DNA of 32,000 nucleotides from Candidatus Saccharimonas aalborgensis (GCF_000392435.1 NC_021219.1:981782-1013781), one strand, 5' to 3'; counted from the first letter of the stretch, positions 198 to 14,823 are shown. Numbers and translations: made by a program. Notes: generated by a model from the letters alone, not told the origin.

Positions 198-422
198 TTA
201 ATCACGTGCGCGGAAAACGATTCTGCCCTTTGTGAGATCATAAGGGGTTAGCTCGACTTCCACGATATCGCCCGGTACCAGACGGATATAATGCTTGCGC
301 ATCTTGCCGCTAATATGAGCGATGATACTTAGGCCGTTTTCCAATTCCACCCTAAACTGAGTATTAGGCAGTGCTTCCACCACCTTGCCTCGCAGTTTAA
401 TAACTTCTTTGGTACTCGCCAT
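198..422 (-). CDS. infA: translation initiation factor IF-1
   Basis: 74 aa: [30 protein letters not shown]...GRIVFRARD, the typical IF-1 S1-fold sequence. Confidence 0.95.
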
Positions 423-438
423 AGATATACAGCATTTT

Positions 439-467
439 ATTATACGGTATCATATGACAAAAGTAAA
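439..467 (-). promoter_or_regulatory. putative sigma70-type promoter for infA-rpmJ
   Basis: The minus strand reads TTTACT-17 nt-TATAAT (-35 at 462-467, -10 at 439-444). The -10 ends about 17 nt upstream of the infA ATG, implying a very short leader. Confidence 0.4.
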
Positions 468-546
468 CAGATTTAACAGAGAATCGCGGTATAGTTAGTC
501 TACCGCAACTAAATTGATAGTTTTATTGTAGCGAATATCGTTCGTG

Positions 547-577
547 AGTCAAGTCAAAAGAGTGAGGATACTTGACT
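547..577. promoter_or_regulatory. 8-bp inverted repeat AGTCAAGT-N15-ACTTGACT overlapping the -35 of the RNA promoter (possible operator)
   Basis: 547-554 agtcaagt is the exact reverse complement of 570-577 acttgact. The right arm contains the TTGACT -35 box. Confidence 0.3.
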
Positions 578-600
578 TTTATATAAATATAGTGTAAAAT
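572..600 (+). promoter_or_regulatory. near-consensus sigma70-type promoter driving the G+C-rich RNA locus
   Basis: TTGACT (572-577), a 17-nt spacer, then TAAAAT (595-600), all in an AT-rich stretch just before the G+C-rich block. Confidence 0.6.
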
Positions 601-604
601 AGTA

Positions 605-1068
605 CACGAGTCCATTGTAGTTTGACAACCCCAACCCCCTGAAAGGATACCTGATGGGAAAGAGATGGCCTGGCATGGGTCGCCTGCGCGCAAAGCGCAA
701 AGCGACTGCCCAGCTCGCCGCTGCTAAGGCAGCGGCGGCGGTGAGGGCTCAGGAGGTCGTGAACGACCTCCTGTATCCCCACCAACGGGAGCACGGTACT
801 TCGCTTCTCGAGCGGCTGCACCCAGAGCCGCTCGACGTGTCGGATCACTCCGGCACGCCCAACCCTCGACGTCGTGTGCGCCATCGGGCAGACCGTCGGC
901 GACGGCTGCCCGAGGCGCTTGTCACCGAGCGGCCCTGCGCCGCTCGCGGCCACCACCGTGGCTGCGAGTGTGCTGACTACGTCTGGGAGCCGCTTCACGC
1001 ATGAAGCGTGCTCCCGACACCTACAATGGATTGGCCCTTACTGCACTCGCGGTAGGGGCCTTTCCTTT
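605..1068 (+). ncRNA. unclassified large structured RNA (~460 nt, G+C-rich, multi-hairpin, closed by a long-range helix)
   Basis: Closing helix 611-620 tccattgtag / 1021-1030 ctacaatgga. Perfect or near-perfect hairpins: 716-737 (9 bp), 750-773 (10 bp), 808-835 (10 bp), 837-856 (7 bp), 884-913 (13 bp, 1 bulge), 943-968 (11 bp), 985-1015 (13 bp, 1 bulge). Promoter upstream, terminator downstream. Counted G+C is 41/60 and 40/60 for lines 661-780. Confidence 0.6.
1033..1068 (+). terminator. intrinsic terminator of the RNA locus
   Basis: 9-bp stem ggcccttac/gtaggggcc (1033-1041 / 1052-1060, one G-U) with a 10-nt loop, followed by tttccttt. The T-tract is present only on the plus strand. Confidence 0.55.
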
Positions 1069-1086
1069 GCAGCTACTTTCGAAATA

Positions 1087-2496
1087 TTATTTGTAATCGT
1101 CGTACGTCACCATGAGGGCGCGTGAGTTGACCTGTCGCAGAGTTTCGAGCCCCACTGTCACGACGATGAGAAGACCCGTGCCTCCAATCGCCAAATTGGC
1201 AGCGTTGAGCCCTAGTTTGACAAAGACATACTCAATGATGAATGGCATCACGGAGATAAAGCCGAGAGCAATAGAACCAAACAGAATTAAGCGATTGACC
1301 GTCCGTCCCAGATATTTTTCGGTCTGAATCCCCGGACGCACTCCCTCGATGAAGCCACCTTGCTTTTGCAGGTTTTCGGCAATCTCATTTGAATTAAAGA
1401 CGATGCCCGTATAGAAGTACGTAAACAATATTACGAGGAGGAAATAGGCAGCCGGATAGATAAATACGCCCAGATCACCACTTGCAAAGGACTGGGCGTT
1501 TGGTGCCTGGAACCACTTGATAAGATCGGCGCTCAGCTGAGTATACGAGGGGTTATTGGTTGCTTTGAGCACTTGACCTGCAAAGGCAGGGAGGCTGAGA
1601 AACGCGACCGCAAAAATCACCGGGATAACACCCGCAGCAATGAGCTTGACGGGGAGGATGCTTTTGATACCGCCGTAACTCGTATTGCCAGCGACACGTT
1701 TGGCGTAGTTGATAGTGATGATACGCTGAGCTTCATTGATTTTAACGAGGAAATACAATATAAAGAGCGATAAAAGACCGATAACAAGTGCTACCCAAAA
1801 CGCCGTCGGGCTCACCGGTAGGTCAAACCAGCCAAAGACGCTTAACTTTCCTGCCGTTGTGTCCAATAGCGAGGCGATGACCGTACTGAGGGTTGCTGGT
1901 AGCTGACTGATGATACCGGCAAAAATAATGAGTGAAATACCATTACCAATACCTTGCTCAGTGATGAGCTCTCCTAGCCACATGAGGAGAATGGAACCGG
2001 CGGTCATAGCAGTGACGGCTACTATCCACTCTGTTGGTGTGGTCGTGACAGTACCGGCAGTACTGCCTGCAAGAACTGACTGGCGCAGAATATAGATAAT
2101 TGCAACAGACTGAATGACTGCGAGTGGTACGGAGATGATACGCGTCCACTGGTTTATCTTGCGACGGCCAGATTCACCATCCTTATGGAGTTCTTCTAGC
2201 TTTGGGATTGCTTTTGTGAGCAACTGGGTGATGACGCTGGCAGTGATAAACGGACTCATTCCGACCAGGACGATAGACAACTGGCTGAGTGCACCACCGC
2301 TCATAAGGTTGAGGAATCCGCCGAAGTCACTTGAGCCGATCACCGTATCAATGATACTCTTTAGCTTACTCGGTTCAGCAATGGGCACAGGGATATGCGA
2401 CATGAAACGAAACGCGACGATCAGTCCAAAGACGATCAAGAGGCGTTTTTGCATATCACGGTTTTTGAGTGATCGAAGGATAATTTTCCAATTCAT
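1087..2496 (-). CDS. secY: preprotein translocase subunit SecY
   Basis: 469 aa polytopic membrane protein with typical SecY sequence (...GMSPFITASVITQLL..., ...GGTGLLIVVTVGLETLRQ...) and operon position after rplO. Confidence 0.95.
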   Translation of the reverse strand: MNWKIILRSLKNRDMQKRLLIVFGLIVAFRFMSHIPVPIAEPSKLKSIIDTVIGSSDFGGFLNLMSGGALSQLSIVLVGMSPFITASVITQLLTKAIPKLEELHKDGESGRRKINQWTRIISVPLAVIQSVAIIYILRQSVLAGSTAGTVTTTPTEWIVAVTAMTAGSILLMWLGELITEQGIGNGISLIIFAGIISQLPATLSTVIASLLDTTAGKLSVFGWFDLPVSPTAFWVALVIGLLSLFILYFLVKINEAQRIITINYAKRVAGNTSYGGIKSILPVKLIAAGVIPVIFAVAFLSLPAFAGQVLKATNNPSYTQLSADLIKWFQAPNAQSFASGDLGVFIYPAAYFLLVILFTYFYTGIVFNSNEIAENLQKQGGFIEGVRPGIQTEKYLGRTVNRLILFGSIALGFISVMPFIIEYVFVKLGLNAANLAIGGTGLLIVVTVGLETLRQVNSRALMVTYDDYK

Positions 2497-2595
2497 ACGG
2501 AGTAATTCTGCCTGTTTTCTGTGCGTTAGATGATACTACTTTACCTACAGTATACAGGACATGTTGCTGCGGTGCTAGCGGATTGTGCCGGATAC

Positions 2596-2624
2596 TTGTA
2601 CGACATGACGATCTGTTGTATAAT
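2596..2624 (+). promoter_or_regulatory. putative sigma70-type promoter for the G+C-rich ORF 2768-3223
   Basis: TTGTAC (2596-2601), a 17-nt spacer, then TATAAT (2619-2624). This predicts a ~140-nt leader. Confidence 0.5.
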
Positions 2625-2767
2625 ATGGTTATTGATAGCATTCGTGGGCATGCTTGATCATTGACAAGCAAGCATGTAGCCTACGGTGCTCCTACGAACT
2701 CCTAGCTCACTCGAGCTGGTGAGAAAAAGACCCTATCAAGACGGGTCACTATGGAAGGAGTTGCCTC

Positions 2768-3223
2768 TTGCCCAAGAAGGTCAAGAATCTGTTCGGTAAG
2801 ACATTCGGCTACGAAGGAGGTGTGGTCAACTTTGACGGACATATGGGCATGTTCGTCGGCGACGACAACGAACCCTTCGCCGGACGTGAGGGTGAGCAGG
2901 TGGTTCCGTACCCCATTGTTCCTCCTGCCGGGGAATCGTCGGCTCGTCGGGCACTCGTCGAGCTGGTGAACCAGACGCTTGCGTCGAGGTACGGTTCCAA
3001 GTTGGATGGAATCATCGTCAGCCCACGGATGGCACGAAACCTCTTCCTCGAGGGGCTGATCACGCCGGTCCATCTGGCTGCGGCCATCGAAGAGGCATTC
3101 GAGGGAGACCTCGTTCTCGTCATCCCGGATGTCAACATCGCTGGGCACCTCCTGTACATCGAGGTCGACAGCAACGCCGCGGTGAACTCATTCGCCATCG
3201 ACCGAAAGGGGTATCTGATCTGA
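2768..3223 (+). CDS. hypothetical protein, 151 aa, G+C-rich (foreign composition)
   Basis: TTG start 7 nt after GGAAGGAG (2753-2760). Third codon positions are mostly G/C. 38/60 G+C counted for 2881-2940. I recognise no family. The overlapping minus-strand ORFs look like G+C-rich shadow frames. Confidence 0.7.
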   Translation: MPKKVKNLFGKTFGYEGGVVNFDGHMGMFVGDDNEPFAGREGEQVVPYPIVPPAGESSARRALVELVNQTLASRYGSKLDGIIVSPRMARNLFLEGLITPVHLAAAIEEAFEGDLVLVIPDVNIAGHLLYIEVDSNAAVNSFAIDRKGYLI

Positions 3224-3242
3224 TGTCGATCCGATCGATGAC

Positions 3243-3276
3243 GAGGGGCGGCGTAGCAGTTTTTGCGCCGCCCCTC
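3243..3276. terminator. 11-bp G+C-rich hairpin without a U-tail, between two convergent genes
   Basis: gaggggcggcg (3243-3253) pairs perfectly with cgccgcccctc (3266-3276) across a 12-nt loop. No T-run follows on either strand. Confidence 0.4.
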
Positions 3277-3322
3277 AGGGGGGTCTCCGTTACCATCGCT
3301 ACACATGCTTGCTTGTCGCAAT

Positions 3323-3344
3323 ACCCCATAAAGGGGTTTTATTT
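3323..3344 (+). terminator. small intrinsic terminator
   Basis: acccc-ataaa-ggggt followed by tttatttat. The T-tract is on the plus strand. Confidence 0.4.
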
Positions 3345-3353
3345 ATATCGTTT

Positions 3354-3788
3354 CTACGCAGCTTGTTCGGAAGCGCGACGAAACACGAGCACTGTATCTG
3401 CTTGTGCATCTCGATCTTTGCGCACAATGGGTAGGGGTAGCTCACCAGCGATCTCTTTGAGTGCTCCCGCAAGAAATAAATCTAAGTCCATTGTTCCTGA
3501 AGCAATCTGACGCCACCCTGTCTCGGAGACAACAACTTTCCCATCGAGGAAGTCTATAAGTTTCTCTGGCAAAAAGCCCTCTATTGCGCCGATAGTCTCG
3601 TCGCTCACCGTCCAACCTGCATCTCTGGCCAGATGCTCTAGGCGCCCCACCTGTGCGCCAATGAACTGCCTGCGGAGATTTCCGTACCCCTCGCGAATGG
3701 CACGTGCTAGTCGCTCACGACCAGCTTGCTCGTAGTTGCGCCGATGTTCATTCCAATCGATCGCTATTTCGGGTACGCGTGGCATCAT
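3354..3788 (-). CDS. hypothetical protein, 144 aa
   Basis: GGAGG (3793-3797) precedes tandem ATGs at 3788 and 3785; the spacing favours 3785. An extended -10 TGcTATAGT lies at 3815-3823 (minus strand). G+C is above the host level (31-39/60 in three counted lines). No family recognised. Confidence 0.65.
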   Translation of the reverse strand: MMPRVPEIAIDWNEHRRNYEQAGRERLARAIREGYGNLRRQFIGAQVGRLEHLARDAGWTVSDETIGAIEGFLPEKLIDFLDGKVVVSETGWRQIASGTMDLDLFLAGALKEIAGELPLPIVRKDRDAQADTVLVFRRASEQAA

Positions 3789-3845
3789 CTGTCCTCCAGT
3801 TTAGCTACTAACAAACTATAGCATGCTTTGTCACACCATCTATAA

Positions 3846-3878
3846 CAAAAGTATGCGCCAATACTGCGCATACTTTTG
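3846..3878 (-). terminator. 13-bp hairpin terminator after rplO
   Basis: caaaagtatgcgc / gcgcatacttttg is a perfect stem with a 7-nt loop. On the minus strand the 3' arm runs into cttttgttat. Confidence 0.5.
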
Positions 3879-3899
3879 GCAAAACCAAGCGAGTTGTCG

Positions 3900-4379
3900 C
3901 TATTTTTTATCTGTAGCTTCAGCTTCTTTGGCTGATTTTTGGATGGGTGTTGCGACTTTATCGAAACTACCACCTGCCTTTTCTATAGCAGCCACAACGT
4001 TCCTTGATGCGCCCTGAGTCTTGAGAGTGATCTTGCTCCCCAGTTCACCACGAGCGATTACCTTGACGGTATGGAACGGTGTCGCGATAAGATTTGCTTC
4101 GTACAGAGCATAGTTATCGACGATACCCTTGAGTCCTTCAAGCCGATCAAGGTAGACAACCTGAGCTGGTGTTCGCAAACTTTTGAATCCTCGTGATTTT
4201 GGCACCGCAGTAGCGATGCCGTTTTGGCCACCCTGAAACATCGGACGCAGCTTCTTGCCAGTACGAGCATTCTGACCTTTTGTTCCGCGACCTGCTGTCT
4301 TGCCACCACCGGCAGCAATTCCGCGGCCGACGCGCTTGCGATCCTTGTGCGTACTCATCTGGAGATCATTGTATTTCAT
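3900..4379 (-). CDS. rplO: 50S ribosomal protein L15
   Basis: 159 aa, ...RKRVGRGIAAGGGKTAGRGTKGQNAR.... TAATG overlap with the rpsE stop. Confidence 0.95.
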   Translation of the reverse strand: MKYNDLQMSTHKDRKRVGRGIAAGGGKTAGRGTKGQNARTGKKLRPMFQGGQNGIATAVPKSRGFKSLRTPAQVVYLDRLEGLKGIVDNYALYEANLIATPFHTVKVIARGELGSKITLKTQGASRNVVAAIEKAGGSFDKVATPIQKSAKEAEATDKK

Positions 4380-5038
4380 TACTTAGTCTCCTTTTTTGGC
4401 GCAACTTTTTTGGCGGGAGCTTTTTTGACAGCAGGCTTATCATCAGATTGAGCAGTCTTTTTCTCTGCAAGTGCGGCCTTTCTAGTTGTCTTTTCAGTAG
4501 TGGTCAACCATTTCTCGCGGGGAACAAGGCTCGAGAGTGCCTCAACAGTAGCGTAGGCAATGTTTACCTTGTTTGTGCTCCCGAGACTCTTTGAAAGCAT
4601 GTTCCGGATACCGGTAACGCTGATAACCGAACGAACCACGCCGCCAGCAATGATACCAGTACCAGGTGCGGCCGGCTTGATGAGGACGCGTGCTCCTGAG
4701 AGCTTTACCTCAGTTTCATGCGGAATGGTCTCGTTGACAACCGGAATCGTGACGAGATGCTTCTTGGCGACATCGGTTGCCTTGGCGATTGCTGTTTGCA
4801 CATCGCTGCCTTTAGAAACACCAACGCCGATCTTATTTTTTCGGTTTCCTACGACGACAAGCGCCTTAAAACGAAACCGTCGGCCGCCGCTGACAACACG
4901 TGCCACACGGTCAATATTGATAACGACTTCTTCGAACTCTTTTGGCGCCTCTGGCGTCTGGTTGCGCCGGTCATCGCGGCGACCACCACGAGCTGGGCGT
5001 GAACCCCGTGGCGTAGTTTGTGCAGTTGTATCTGCCAT
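4379..5038 (-). CDS. rpsE: 30S ribosomal protein S5 with Lys/Ala-rich C-terminal tail
   Basis: S5 core (...RVVSGGRRFRFKALVVVGN...). I prefer ATG 5038 (GGAG 8 nt upstream) over GTG 5041. It directly abuts rplO with no L30 gene between. Confidence 0.9.
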   Translation of the reverse strand: MADTTAQTTPRGSRPARGGRRDDRRNQTPEAPKEFEEVVINIDRVARVVSGGRRFRFKALVVVGNRKNKIGVGVSKGSDVQTAIAKATDVAKKHLVTIPVVNETIPHETEVKLSGARVLIKPAAPGTGIIAGGVVRSVISVTGIRNMLSKSLGSTNKVNIAYATVEALSSLVPREKWLTTTEKTTRKAALAEKKTAQSDDKPAVKKAPAKKVAPKKETK

Positions 5039-5040
5039 CA

Positions 5041-5394
5041 CTAAAACTCCAATCCTTCTTTACGTGCTGCATCTGCAAGTGCTCCCAGTCGGCCAGCATA
5101 CTGGCGACCATTGCGGTCAAACACAACAGTGGTTATTTTTACTTTCTTAGCCTTCTTTGCAATTTCGGTACCGATACTGGCGCACTTTTCAGTCATCCTA
5201 CCAGTCAGTTTGCTGCCTACTGAGGTTGCGCTCGCAAGTGTATGTTGCTTGTCGTCATCAATTAACTGTGCGCTAACGTGCATATTGCTGATAACAACAC
5301 TTAGTCGTGGTCTCTCGGCAGTACCGTGTACTTTTGCGCGAACACGACTCTTACGGAGGCTTCGGTTAAGCAGTTTTTTTGCTAAATTAGTCAT
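5041..5394 (-). CDS. rplR: 50S ribosomal protein L18
   Basis: 117 aa, ...VFDRNGRQYAGRLGALADAARKEGLEF, the typical L18 C-terminus. Confidence 0.95.
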   Translation of the reverse strand: MTNLAKKLLNRSLRKSRVRAKVHGTAERPRLSVVISNMHVSAQLIDDDKQHTLASATSVGSKLTGRMTEKCASIGTEIAKKAKKVKITTVVFDRNGRQYAGRLGALADAARKEGLEF

Positions 5395-5522
5395 TACTTC
5401 TTCCCTGCCTTTCCAGTCTGTGTATGAGACAAATCTACGGTTTTTCTCATCGCGCGGCGCACAGGAGTAAATCCTGATGCTCCGGCTGCTCTTTTCCCTT
5501 GGGTTATAGCTAGATCAGACAT
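5394..5522 (-). CDS. small basic ORF (42 aa) between rplF and rplR
   Basis: Not in the ORF track. MSDLAITQGKRAAGASGFTPVRRAMRKTVDLSHTQTGKAGKK*. TAATG overlaps on both sides (rplF stop/its ATG at 5520-5524; its stop/rplR ATG at 5392-5396). No family recognised. Confidence 0.4.
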   Translation of the reverse strand: MSDLAITQGKRAAGASGFTPVRRAMRKTVDLSHTQTGKAGKK

Positions 5523-6076: not shown

Positions 6077-6259
6077 TTATTCAAGTTCTTCATCGTCGTT
6101 AACCGGAACATAAGTATTAAACATGTGCAATACCTGCTCTCGATGCTCTAGCGTTATGCCCAGCAAGGAAGATCCAGCAATTTTCTTGTAAAACTCAGTT
6201 GCCGCAGTATCGAGATAGTCTCGTTGCTCGGGTGTTAATTCTGCTCGTGCCTTGACCAT
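6077..6259 (-). CDS. small acidic ORF (60 aa) between rpsH and rplF
   Basis: MVKARAELTPEQRDYLDTAATEFYKK...VPVNDDEELE. Its ATG lies 1 nt after the rpsH TAG, and it ends 18 nt before the rplF ATG. No family recognised. Confidence 0.45.
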   Translation of the reverse strand: MVKARAELTPEQRDYLDTAATEFYKKIAGSSLLGITLEHREQVLHMFNTYVPVNDDEELE

Positions 6260-13635: not shown

Positions 13636-13881
13636 TTGAAATCACGTGTGACTGGTATGGTTCTCGGCCTTGTGGTGCTCACGGCCTGCGGCGCTTCAAG
13701 CACCGCGGCCGCTGATACTCAACCGAACATGAACCCGAGAACTGGATGGGTTGTCGTTCGAGAAGATCGGCAGGTCGGAGTGTCCAAGGTGTGTGATGGG
13801 TCAACACTCATCTACCACGCCTTTGCCTACAACGGCAATGGCGGACTGGCTGTCATCGCAAACAGTCCCGAGTGCTCATAA
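13636..13881 (+). CDS. small putative lipoprotein (81 aa)
   Basis: TTG start 10 nt after AGAGG. The N-terminus MKSRVTGMVLGLVVLTAC has a basic n-region, a hydrophobic core and the lipobox L-T-A-C. The mature part has two Cys. G+C-rich. Confidence 0.6.
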   Translation: MKSRVTGMVLGLVVLTACGASSTAAADTQPNMNPRTGWVVVREDRQVGVSKVCDGSTLIYHAFAYNGNGGLAVIANSPECS

Positions 13882-13901
13882 GCAGATAGTGAGGAAAACT
13901 C

Positions 13902-14312
13902 ATGGTCAAGCCCACGATGGGTCTCGGTGACCCGATCAGTGACAAGCAGGCAGCTCGGCTTGAGCGCGTCTACCAAGTCGTGCGAGGAGTGACCGATCGC
14001 ATCTACAGGCCCCTCGACATGGAGAGGGGCGACCAGCACTTTGTGACGGAAGTCGCGAAGTACGTCATCGGCGTCGACACGACATCGCTCGACCTGCCGT
14101 TCAACCCCGAGGCCATCATGCCATTGGGGGCCAAACTCACCAAGCGGCAGCGCCGGCTGATCGGTGACGTCGTCTATGTCTGGATGCGTCGGTTCACGAC
14201 CGACTACCAGTACATGGTGCGGCTTGTCCTCCTGGCGCGGTTCGCGCGCTTCTCGAACCCAGTTCGGGTCGAGATGGCGAATCAGGCCGTCGGCCATCGT
14301 CCCAAGGAGTAG
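13902..14312 (+). CDS. hypothetical protein, 136 aa, G+C-rich
   Basis: ATG 6 nt after GAGGA. 36/60 G+C counted for 14041-14100. No family recognised. Confidence 0.6.
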   Translation: MVKPTMGLGDPISDKQAARLERVYQVVRGVTDRIYRPLDMERGDQHFVTEVAKYVIGVDTTSLDLPFNPEAIMPLGAKLTKRQRRLIGDVVYVWMRRFTTDYQYMVRLVLLARFARFSNPVRVEMANQAVGHRPKE

Positions 14313-14363
14313 GCGCTACACACTAGCCCGCTCCTACCCGCATTCTCCGGAATCATTCCGTCG

Positions 14364-14396
14364 AGAAGCCCGTAGGAGGCGGGCTTTTCGATTTTT
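14364..14396 (+). terminator. intrinsic terminator inside the cassette
   Basis: Stem agcccg/cgggct (14367-14372 / 14380-14385) with a 7-nt loop, followed by ttttcgattttt. Confidence 0.5.
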
Positions 14397-14424
14397 AGGA
14401 GATTATATGATATAGTATGGAAAT

Positions 14425-14766
14425 ATGACGGCAACAGGGCCGTCCCGTGTCCTAGGAGGATCTGTGAGCAGAAACCGTGTACCGACGTGGAAAAAGGTTC
14501 GGCACGACGCCCTCGCATCGTTGCGAGGCAGCGGCTACGAGATCGATAAGGCCATCGTCGCCATCGTGACCGCCTGCGCTCGCTACGTCGTCGGTCAAGA
14601 CTACGACCACTCGGTCGTGGACTTCGGCGATCGCGACCTGTGGGTCGACCGCGAGTACCGCCCCATCATCAGTGCGGCGGCCGACGCCGCCGACGCACTC
14701 GGGTCTAGTCACCTGGACATCTACGAGCGTGTCGGCCACCTGTACCACCTCGTCCATCAGGACTAG
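14425..14766 (+). CDS. hypothetical protein, 113 aa (or 100 aa from GTG 14464), G+C-rich
   Basis: ATG 14425 has a weak RBS. The in-frame GTG at 14464 follows AGGAGG by 4 nt. No family recognised. Confidence 0.55.
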   Translation: MTATGPSRVLGGSVSRNRVPTWKKVRHDALASLRGSGYEIDKAIVAIVTACARYVVGQDYDHSVVDFGDRDLWVDREYRPIISAAADAADALGSSHLDIYERVGHLYHLVHQD

Positions 14767-14773
14767 GCGACAC

Positions 14774-14823
14774 ACGACGACAGATGGGTGAGCTCTCCTC
14801 TAAAGCTCCCCGTCTGTCGTCGT
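14774..14823. terminator. long G+C-rich hairpin (15-bp outer stem plus 5-bp inner stem) without a U-tail
   Basis: acgacgacagatggg (14774-14788) pairs with cccgtctgtcgtcgt (14809-14823) with one G-U. Inner stem gagct/agctc. Confidence 0.4.

Follow-up and report, generated by a model that had tools for sequence, protein, structure and literature searches.

The genes of the bacterial spc operon follow a canonical order (…rpsE-rpmD-rplO-secY-adk-map-infA…), and some bacterial mRNAs, such as icaR of S. aureus and hbs of B. subtilis, are stabilized or processed through pairing between their 5' and 3' untranslated regions (UTRs). Both systems can be compared with a 32 kb stretch of DNA of 48.8% G+C (the window throughout this text), the closest public sequences to which are metagenome-assembled genomes of Candidatus Saccharimonas aalborgensis and related Saccharibacteria (TM7, Candidate Phyla Radiation or CPR). 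The window contains a minus-strand ribosomal-protein/secY cluster (infA at 198-422, secY at 1087-2496, rplO at 3900-4379, rpsE at 4379-5041 and further genes), and the gap between rplO and secY is occupied by two small open reading frames (ORFs), ORF A and ORF B. Focusing on their coding status, their distribution among relatives and the signals around them, we consider it probable that these two are accessory genes, non-essential, restricted to their lineage and independent of each other, which occupy an insulated slot between rplO and secY, a class-wide hotspot of gene turnover, and that they are not a functional pair.

The ORFs, hairpins, promoter motifs and ribosome-binding sites (RBSs) named in the initial annotation of this locus were all found in the sequence, and Pfam, which was used to assign gene families, verified rplO and secY as the flanks of the two genes. 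The pair is convergent, as had been described, but ORF B runs in the direction of rplO and secY and only ORF A is antisense. A literature search for a hotspot between rplO and secY, or for ORF A or ORF B, found nothing relevant.

Coding status and independence of ORF A and ORF B

By their substitution patterns, ORF A and ORF B are real coding genes. The annotated frame of ORF A is the sole stop-free frame of the six and has the lowest ratio of non-synonymous to synonymous substitution rates (dN/dS of 0.27-0.46 across orthologues, with dS up to 0.57), and ORF B shows a dN/dS of 0.11-0.13 at a dS of ~1.0. It is true that G+C-rich non-coding or RNA-coding DNA can yield long ORFs by chance, that antisense ORFs of 148 and 170 aa overlap ORF A, that one gene caller chose the opposite strand in L008 and that the RNA of 2631-3345 folds well (z = -4.3), but in every intact lineage the annotated frames remain open, and they have the lowest dN/dS at dS values of up to 0.6-1.0, good RBS motifs stand at the right distance from the starts and a search of 300-4000 against Rfam, at gathering and permissive thresholds, returned no RNA family, which makes chance frames an extremely improbable explanation.

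All contigs that contain ORF A or ORF B do so at this one position, in one of four configurations. Both genes are intact in the window and in a more diverged lineage (L015/L016), ORF A occurs alone in L001-6, L013/14, L017 and L102, ORF B accompanies a frameshifted ORF A in L007-12, L018 and L103/104, and ORF B occurs alone in L098-L101. Where ORF A stands alone, ~25 nt take the place of ORF B and its promoter, a clean insertion/deletion (indel; Table 1), whereas the frameshifted ORF A is split by a 19-nt deletion, an allele recovered from five or more independent assemblies. The lineage with ORF B alone is further removed (its SecY is ~81% identical), and its gene order is rplO, a hairpin, the ORF B homologue, 90 bp and then secY, with no trace of ORF A. 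The comparison of synteny among relatives that the initial annotation had called for thus revealed a presence and absence that differ among near-identical strains.

This distribution bears directly on the earlier proposal that the two genes form an addiction, immunity or conflict module, in the manner of a toxin-antitoxin pair in which one product neutralizes the other. Such a module would account for two small, adjacent, strain-variable genes for unknown proteins with promoters of their own, for the foreign composition of ORF A and for the intact state of both genes in the window and in L015. However, each gene is found without the other in near-identical or related genomes, an intact ORF B can stand next to a frameshifted ORF A, and the genes are convergent, ~130 bp apart and behind separate promoter-like sites rather than co-transcribed; their codon compositions also differ, suggesting different histories. 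Since intact copies of each gene occur where the other is missing, neither can act as a toxin that requires its neighbour. Homology does not help the proposal either: neither protein matched a toxin-antitoxin family in Pfam, NCBIfam, PADLOC, PHROG or PDB sequences, and the defence-protein models of PADLOC-DB gave no match at E <= 1. Since ORF A and ORF B occur independently, the addiction or immunity reading fails, and we regard any form of conflict module as very unlikely.

The rplO-secY boundary as a hotspot of accessory genes

Across 76 species-level Saccharimonadia loci the gap between rplO and secY ranges from 79 to 3169 bp. The premise that the two genes are normally adjacent is therefore only partly true, since the gap is at most 200 bp in 47 of these loci and larger in 29. 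In the 27 gaps of more than 250 bp that were examined, the ORFs are related neither to one another nor to ORF A or ORF B (blastp and hidden Markov model, HMM, searches), so that the same flanks enclose different, unrelated content. The identifiable cargo comprises OmpA-like membrane proteins, a PG_binding_1 protein and a UbiA prenyltransferase with a polyprenyl synthase, and most of the remainder are orphans. A further comparison of ORF A and ORF B with the cargo ORFs of the same gap in 79 other species, by blastp and by HMM on six-frame translations, detected no homology.

A 13-bp perfect hairpin downstream of rplO is a probable rplO terminator, and equivalent hairpins lie 3' of rplO in short-gap relatives. 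At the other end of the gap, the promoter-like -10 element of secY, TGTATACT, is one of only two TGTATAMT sites in the 32 kb; the other is that of ORF A, and the two are divergent. The CTGTATACTG/TGTATACTG motif upstream of secY also occurs in L098 and in Nanosynbacter-like loci, and most short-gap relatives have the hairpin followed by a promoter-like motif. We infer from these motifs that the rplO-secY junction is a boundary between transcription units. With the rplO hairpin as terminator and a promoter of its own for secY, the slot would be transcriptionally insulated, and insertions between the two should therefore not be polar on the essential genes. Nine of the short-gap loci (L027, L031, L033, L045, L084, L087, L090, L093 and L094), with gaps of 79-101 bp, share a long hairpin of the form GCAC..TTTCNGGAGTATAC…GTATACTCCG..GTAGC between rplO and secY; it has no U-tract and might not be a terminator but a conserved leader or a structure for processing.

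The two residents of the slot differ in composition. ORF A has 58% G+C (z = 2.2 against 450-bp windows of the whole stretch) and a G+C content at third codon positions (GC3) of 0.73, compared with 0.38-0.58 in the neighbouring genes, whereas ORF B has 54% G+C (z = 1.1; 12.5% of the 450-bp windows are as high or higher) and a native GC3 of 0.48, its raised G+C being located at first codon positions (0.69). The foreign composition that had been attributed to both genes thus holds for ORF A and not for ORF B, and the same division applies to the idea of a horizontally acquired cassette: the lineage-restricted extra cargo, its variability between strains, the mosaic divergence described below and the composition of ORF A agree with it, but ORF B is not foreign. 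The antisense orientation and high GC3 of ORF A suggest a foreign origin or a different mutational history.

The relatives of both proteins are few. For ORF A (hydropathy 0.13), six were found in a collection of 5.8 billion proteins, and a profile search of 1.84 billion representatives found no true relative beyond the narrow Ca. Saccharimonas aalborgensis clade. One candidate, P0012, a repeat protein of 2,920 aa in which a 33-residue stretch was matched in eight repeats, was judged to be repeat-inflated and spurious. The relatives of ORF B (hydropathy -0.31) are three close proteins (P0007-9) and two of 158 aa at ~50% identity (P0010/11), the latter encoded at the same locus in the more distant lineage. 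An XRE-like helix-turn-helix that had been suspected by eye in ORF B (residues ~49-72) was supported neither by Pfam nor by the more distant homologues and was dropped. Viral contigs, phage genomes and plasmids contained no relatives of either protein.

Alternatively, ORF B and perhaps ORF A could assist the ribosome or the Sec translocon as a lineage-specific accessory factor, recruited into the cluster for expression together with its partners. ORF B has the orientation of the operon and native codon usage, is under strong purifying selection (dN/dS ~0.12) and holds the same position in two lineages with secY proteins that are ~81% identical. Against this, it lies behind a terminator-like hairpin with its own promoter, its isoelectric point (pI) of 5.5 differs from the 9.7-10.7 of the ribosomal proteins encoded here, it is deleted in strains with ribosomal-protein genes that are 100% identical to those of the window and it is missing from 79 of the 80 species-level Saccharimonadia loci fetched. 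A role as such a factor is accordingly unlikely. The initial annotation had itself named conservation at this position together with housekeeping functions as an outcome that would speak against its reading; the position is indeed conserved within the clade, but the genes have no housekeeping annotation and are dispensable.

As independent accessory genes, ORF A and ORF B would have the following history. Both would belong to the ancestral content of the slot in the Ca. Saccharimonas aalborgensis clade, and the co-directional ORF B, native in codon usage, would probably be the older resident, since a more distant lineage has it without ORF A. The losses would have been separate, that of ORF B through a clean deletion of ~485 bp and that of ORF A through the 19-nt frameshifting deletion, and homologous recombination, with the highly conserved genes on either side as its anchors, would since have redistributed the alleles among strains.

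The divergence around the locus is a mosaic. Between the window and L001, rplO, rpsE and infA are identical (dS = 0), whereas the dS of ORF A is 0.40, that of ORF C, an ORF between secY and infA, is 0.24 and that of secY is 0.105, with 34 synonymous and no non-synonymous differences that are concentrated at its 3' end. Between the window and L007, in contrast, the dS of rplO is 0.147 and that of ORF B 0.024, and secY is itself a recombination mosaic, only 80-91% identical at 1800-2400 and 95-100% identical over the remainder. The identity profiles around the locus are patchy, and the window combines L001-like ribosomal-protein genes with an L007-like ORF B, a pattern that would be expected of homologous recombination anchored in conserved flanks.

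Other parts of the cluster vary as well. Between secY and infA, 600-1086 forms a third, stronger G+C island (64-68% G+C, z = 3.5), which contains ORF C (654-1004, plus strand; 116 aa, Arg-rich, pI 10.7, GC3 0.71, no family match). Its plus-strand frame looks coding, because its dN/dS of 0.33-0.37 is lower than the 0.65-0.81 of the opposite-strand ORF; it is called as a gene of 116 or 119 aa in relatives, and no other segment has diverged as far between near-identical strains as its region (84-90% identity). A gene for an rve-family transposase (HTH_23 and rve, 321 aa) lies between infA and the ORF C homologue of L001 (L001 2621-3586). The insertion is present in the secY-infA gap of L001, L003 and L006 and absent from the window, and this gap therefore also tolerates insertions. 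The rpsH-rplF spacer is another small variable slot, as the acidic ORF of 60 aa at 6077-6259 (minus strand) is replaced by a different ORF of 44 aa in L007 and by one of 94 aa in L098.

Spacers of the ribosomal-protein operon also contain a repeated element with a conserved core of ~75 nt (window 5395-5521, minus strand; L001 10304-10411; L024 530-576). The copy in the window lies between rplF and rplR, and a paralogous copy between rplX and rplE occurs in L001, L002 and L007-10 and is missing from the window. The two copies share the hairpin loop TTTAC and show compensatory changes in the stem; the element looks like RNA or DNA rather than protein, because the ORFs of 42 and 35 aa called in it read the conserved bases in different frames. 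In L001 the junction between the L24 stop and the L5 start is present as a 17-nt direct repeat on either side of the additional copy, and the element has no match in Rfam. Upstream of the S10-type operon, a further G+C-rich island (13650-14800, 58-60% G+C) contains two orphan ORFs on the plus strand, 13902-14312 (136 aa, GC3 0.82) and 14425-14766 (113 aa, GC3 0.77), the second of which is preceded by an extended -10, TGATATAGT, at 14408. They have no Pfam match and no similarity to ORF A or ORF C, and no paralogy was detected among these four G+C-rich orphans of the window.

Putative expression signals and the inverted repeat around ORF A

Each of the two genes would form an expression unit of its own, with promoter, RBS and ORF, and the promoter-like motif that had been ascribed to each is present. 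That of ORF A consists of TTGTAC (2596-2601) and TATAAT (2619-2624) separated by 17 nt, with GGAAGGAG 7 nt before the TTG start as the RBS; a generic promoter scan did not list the site, because its -35 hexamer agrees with TTGACA at only three of six positions. ORF B has the extended -10-like element TGCTATAGT and a GGAGG. There are six TGNTATANT sites in the window, of which those at 14408 and 17518 closely precede ORFs as well.

Where the two genes converge, neither hairpin of the zone has a U-tract, the 11-bp G/C hairpin having none on either strand; the plus-strand hairpin at 3323-3337 is the sole canonical terminator-like site, and together with the T-run that follows it is the probable end of the ORF A transcript.

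ORF A, part of its leader and the G/C hairpin are enclosed by a perfect 15-nt inverted repeat, for which we estimate a chance expectation of ~0.006 such perfect 15-nt pairs in a region of 3.6 kb. The repeat is kept in every ORF A lineage with single-base changes only, though the ORF between its arms has diverged to a dS of ~0.5, and it is absent from the ORF B-only lineage. One arm lies ~32 nt from the predicted 5' end of the transcript and the other 6 nt upstream of the terminator-like hairpin, and in the folding of 2631-3345 described above the two arms close both the minimum free energy (MFE) and the centroid structures. The repeat is therefore predicted to be a duplex between the 5'UTR and the 3'UTR that would close the ORF A mRNA and that probably affects its stability or processing.

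An inverted repeat around a gene may also mark the ends of a small mobile or invertible element, such as a miniature inverted-repeat transposable element (MITE), a derivative of an insertion sequence (IS) or an inverton, with ORF A as its cargo. The terminal inverted repeats of such an element are present in the form of the two arms, retained in all carriers, the GC3 of ORF A is high, and an rve-family IS occupies the neighbouring secY-infA gap of L001. However, ORF A was seen at a single locus and in constant orientation in more than 20 contigs, no direct repeat that could represent a target-site duplication abuts the arms, the motif has no copies in the window beyond the two arms, and no transposase or recombinase is adjacent. 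As the promoter and the terminator of ORF A lie just outside the arms, the repeat fits elements within a transcript better than the ends of an element, and a mobile or invertible element is an unlikely origin for it.

Several observations weigh against the interpretation of ORF A and ORF B as independent accessory genes of an insulated slot, or against parts of it. The promoters and terminators are assigned from motif matches, and their activity is presumed. The inverted repeat shows no compensatory changes; pairing between the UTRs as RNA is for this reason a prediction, and the repeat may be a site that acts at the DNA level. No donor lineage of ORF A was found, and the argument for its foreign origin is consequently one of codon composition. 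Function searches did not place either protein: Pfam, NCBIfam, PADLOC and PHROGs gave nothing at E <= 0.1 for ORF A, ORF B or ORF C, and profile searches of the PDB gave nothing below E = 0.9 for ORF A and ORF B. The fold comparison that the initial annotation had recommended was carried out, but AlphaFold2 models built from the shallow family alignments reached predicted local distance difference test (pLDDT) scores of 38 for ORF A and 50 for ORF B and are unusable, so that the search was uninformative (the best Foldseek match of the ORF B model to the PDB, at E = 1.8, is meaningless). Finally, two diverged lineages, those of the window and L015, have intact copies of both genes, and a looser functional link between ORF A and ORF B is possible.

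A more far-reaching interpretation would take the rplO|secY boundary of epibiotic Saccharibacteria for a class-wide capture site at which strain-specific genes, perhaps with roles in host interaction or at the cell surface, are swapped by recombination, with ORF A as an acquired new fold whose mRNA is closed and controlled by the 15-nt UTR duplex; we hold this to be rather improbable. On the reading preferred here, the locus is an ordinary accessory-gene hotspot in an unusual place, and the class-wide extent of the hotspot and the UTR repeat are its only mildly unusual points.

In conclusion, this study corrects the attractive view of ORF A and ORF B as a conflict module inside an essential operon and offers an explanation for the tolerance of the cluster to insertion, in which the operon break of Saccharimonadia, made up of a terminator and a secY promoter, would be a recurrent landing site for unrelated accessory genes. 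For the annotation and binning of CPR genomes, these findings describe a marker-gene cluster with strain-variable cargo and mosaic recombination, which can influence phylogenies built on marker genes and the resolution of strains. The two proteins enlarge the set of CPR orphan families, and the conserved UTR-UTR repeat provides a small testable lead.

Table 1. Genes and candidate signals in the rplO-secY region of the window
Feature	Position	Strand	Basis and conservation
secY, 469 aa	1087-2496	-	Pfam SecY, E = 3e-91; downstream flank of the gap
secY promoter-like -10 element TGTATACT	2549-2556	-	TGTATAMT motif; putative function
ORF A promoter-like site TTGTAC-17-TATAAT, -10 TGTATAAT at 2617-2624	2596-2624	+	Motif; kept in all ORF A carriers
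Predicted 5' leader of ORF A (~137 nt; small hairpins, RBS)	2631-2767	+	Sequence, conservation and fold; start placed from the -10
Inverted repeat, left arm GACAAGCAAGCATGT	2663-2677	.	Perfect 15-nt match; in every ORF A carrier
ORF A RBS GGAAGGAG	2753-2760	+	
ORF A, 151 aa, TTG start, acidic pI 5.0, orphan family	2768-3223	+	Stop-free frame, lowest dN/dS of six
11-bp G/C hairpin, convergence zone	3243-3253/3266-3276	.	Kept, with changes, in relatives
Inverted repeat, right arm ACATGCTTGCTTGTC	3303-3317	.	Pairs with 2663-2677 in MFE and centroid folds of 2631-3345
Intrinsic-terminator-like hairpin and T-run, ACCCCATAAAGGGGT TTTATTTATA	3323-3347 (hairpin 3323-3337)	+	Kept in relatives
ORF B, 144 aa, acidic pI 5.5, orphan family, native codon usage	3354-3788	-	dN/dS 0.11-0.13 against L015
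ORF B presence/absence indel (gene, RBS and promoter)	3356-3840	-	~25 nt in its place in L001, L013 and L102; pairwise alignments
ORF B RBS GGAGG	3793-3797	-	
ORF B extended -10-like element TGCTATAGT	3815-3823	-	Motif
13-bp perfect hairpin downstream of rplO	3846-3858/3866-3878	-	L001 keeps the stem, with another loop
rplO (L15)	3900-4379	-	Pfam Ribosomal_L27A; upstream flank of the gap

Comparison with known systems

The closest counterparts of the rplO-secY slot are hotspots flanked by core genes, with which it shares variable content between the same core genes, lineage-specific and mostly unknown cargo, an atypical composition of some of that cargo (here ORF A and not ORF B) and mosaic flanks. 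It differs from them in being located inside a ribosomal-protein/secY cluster, in receiving inserts of one or two genes and in encoding proteins without relatives outside one clade. The mobility genes and tRNAs that border classical islands have no equivalent here: no integrase adjoins the locus, the window contains no integrase, tRNA or phage genes, and the rve-family IS is found only in the neighbouring gap of L001. Type II toxin-antitoxin modules resemble the locus in consisting of two small adjacent unknown genes that vary between strains, but ORF A and ORF B are convergent rather than operonic, each is alone in some loci and neither has homology to the families of such modules. MITEs and IS elements share with ORF A the terminal inverted repeats, whereas their target-site duplications and multiple copies are missing (two exact copies of the motif in the window, one locus for ORF A), and an inverton would be expected to change its orientation, which is the same in all assembled contigs, with no recombinase nearby.

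As in the icaR and hbs type of mRNA, a long perfect duplex is predicted for ORF A, which would join a sequence ~30 nt from the presumed 5' end to one just upstream of the terminator hairpin. In the case of ORF A, however, the arms are invariant and show no covariation, and the duplex is known from prediction and could act at the DNA level. Finally, the window retains the ribosomal-protein gene order of the canonical spc operon, with secY after rplO, but it differs in three respects: rpmD is not found between rpsE and rplO, either in the window or in the relatives examined, a putative terminator, a putative promoter and the cargo described here stand between rplO and secY, and an orphan gene takes the place of adk and map between secY and infA.

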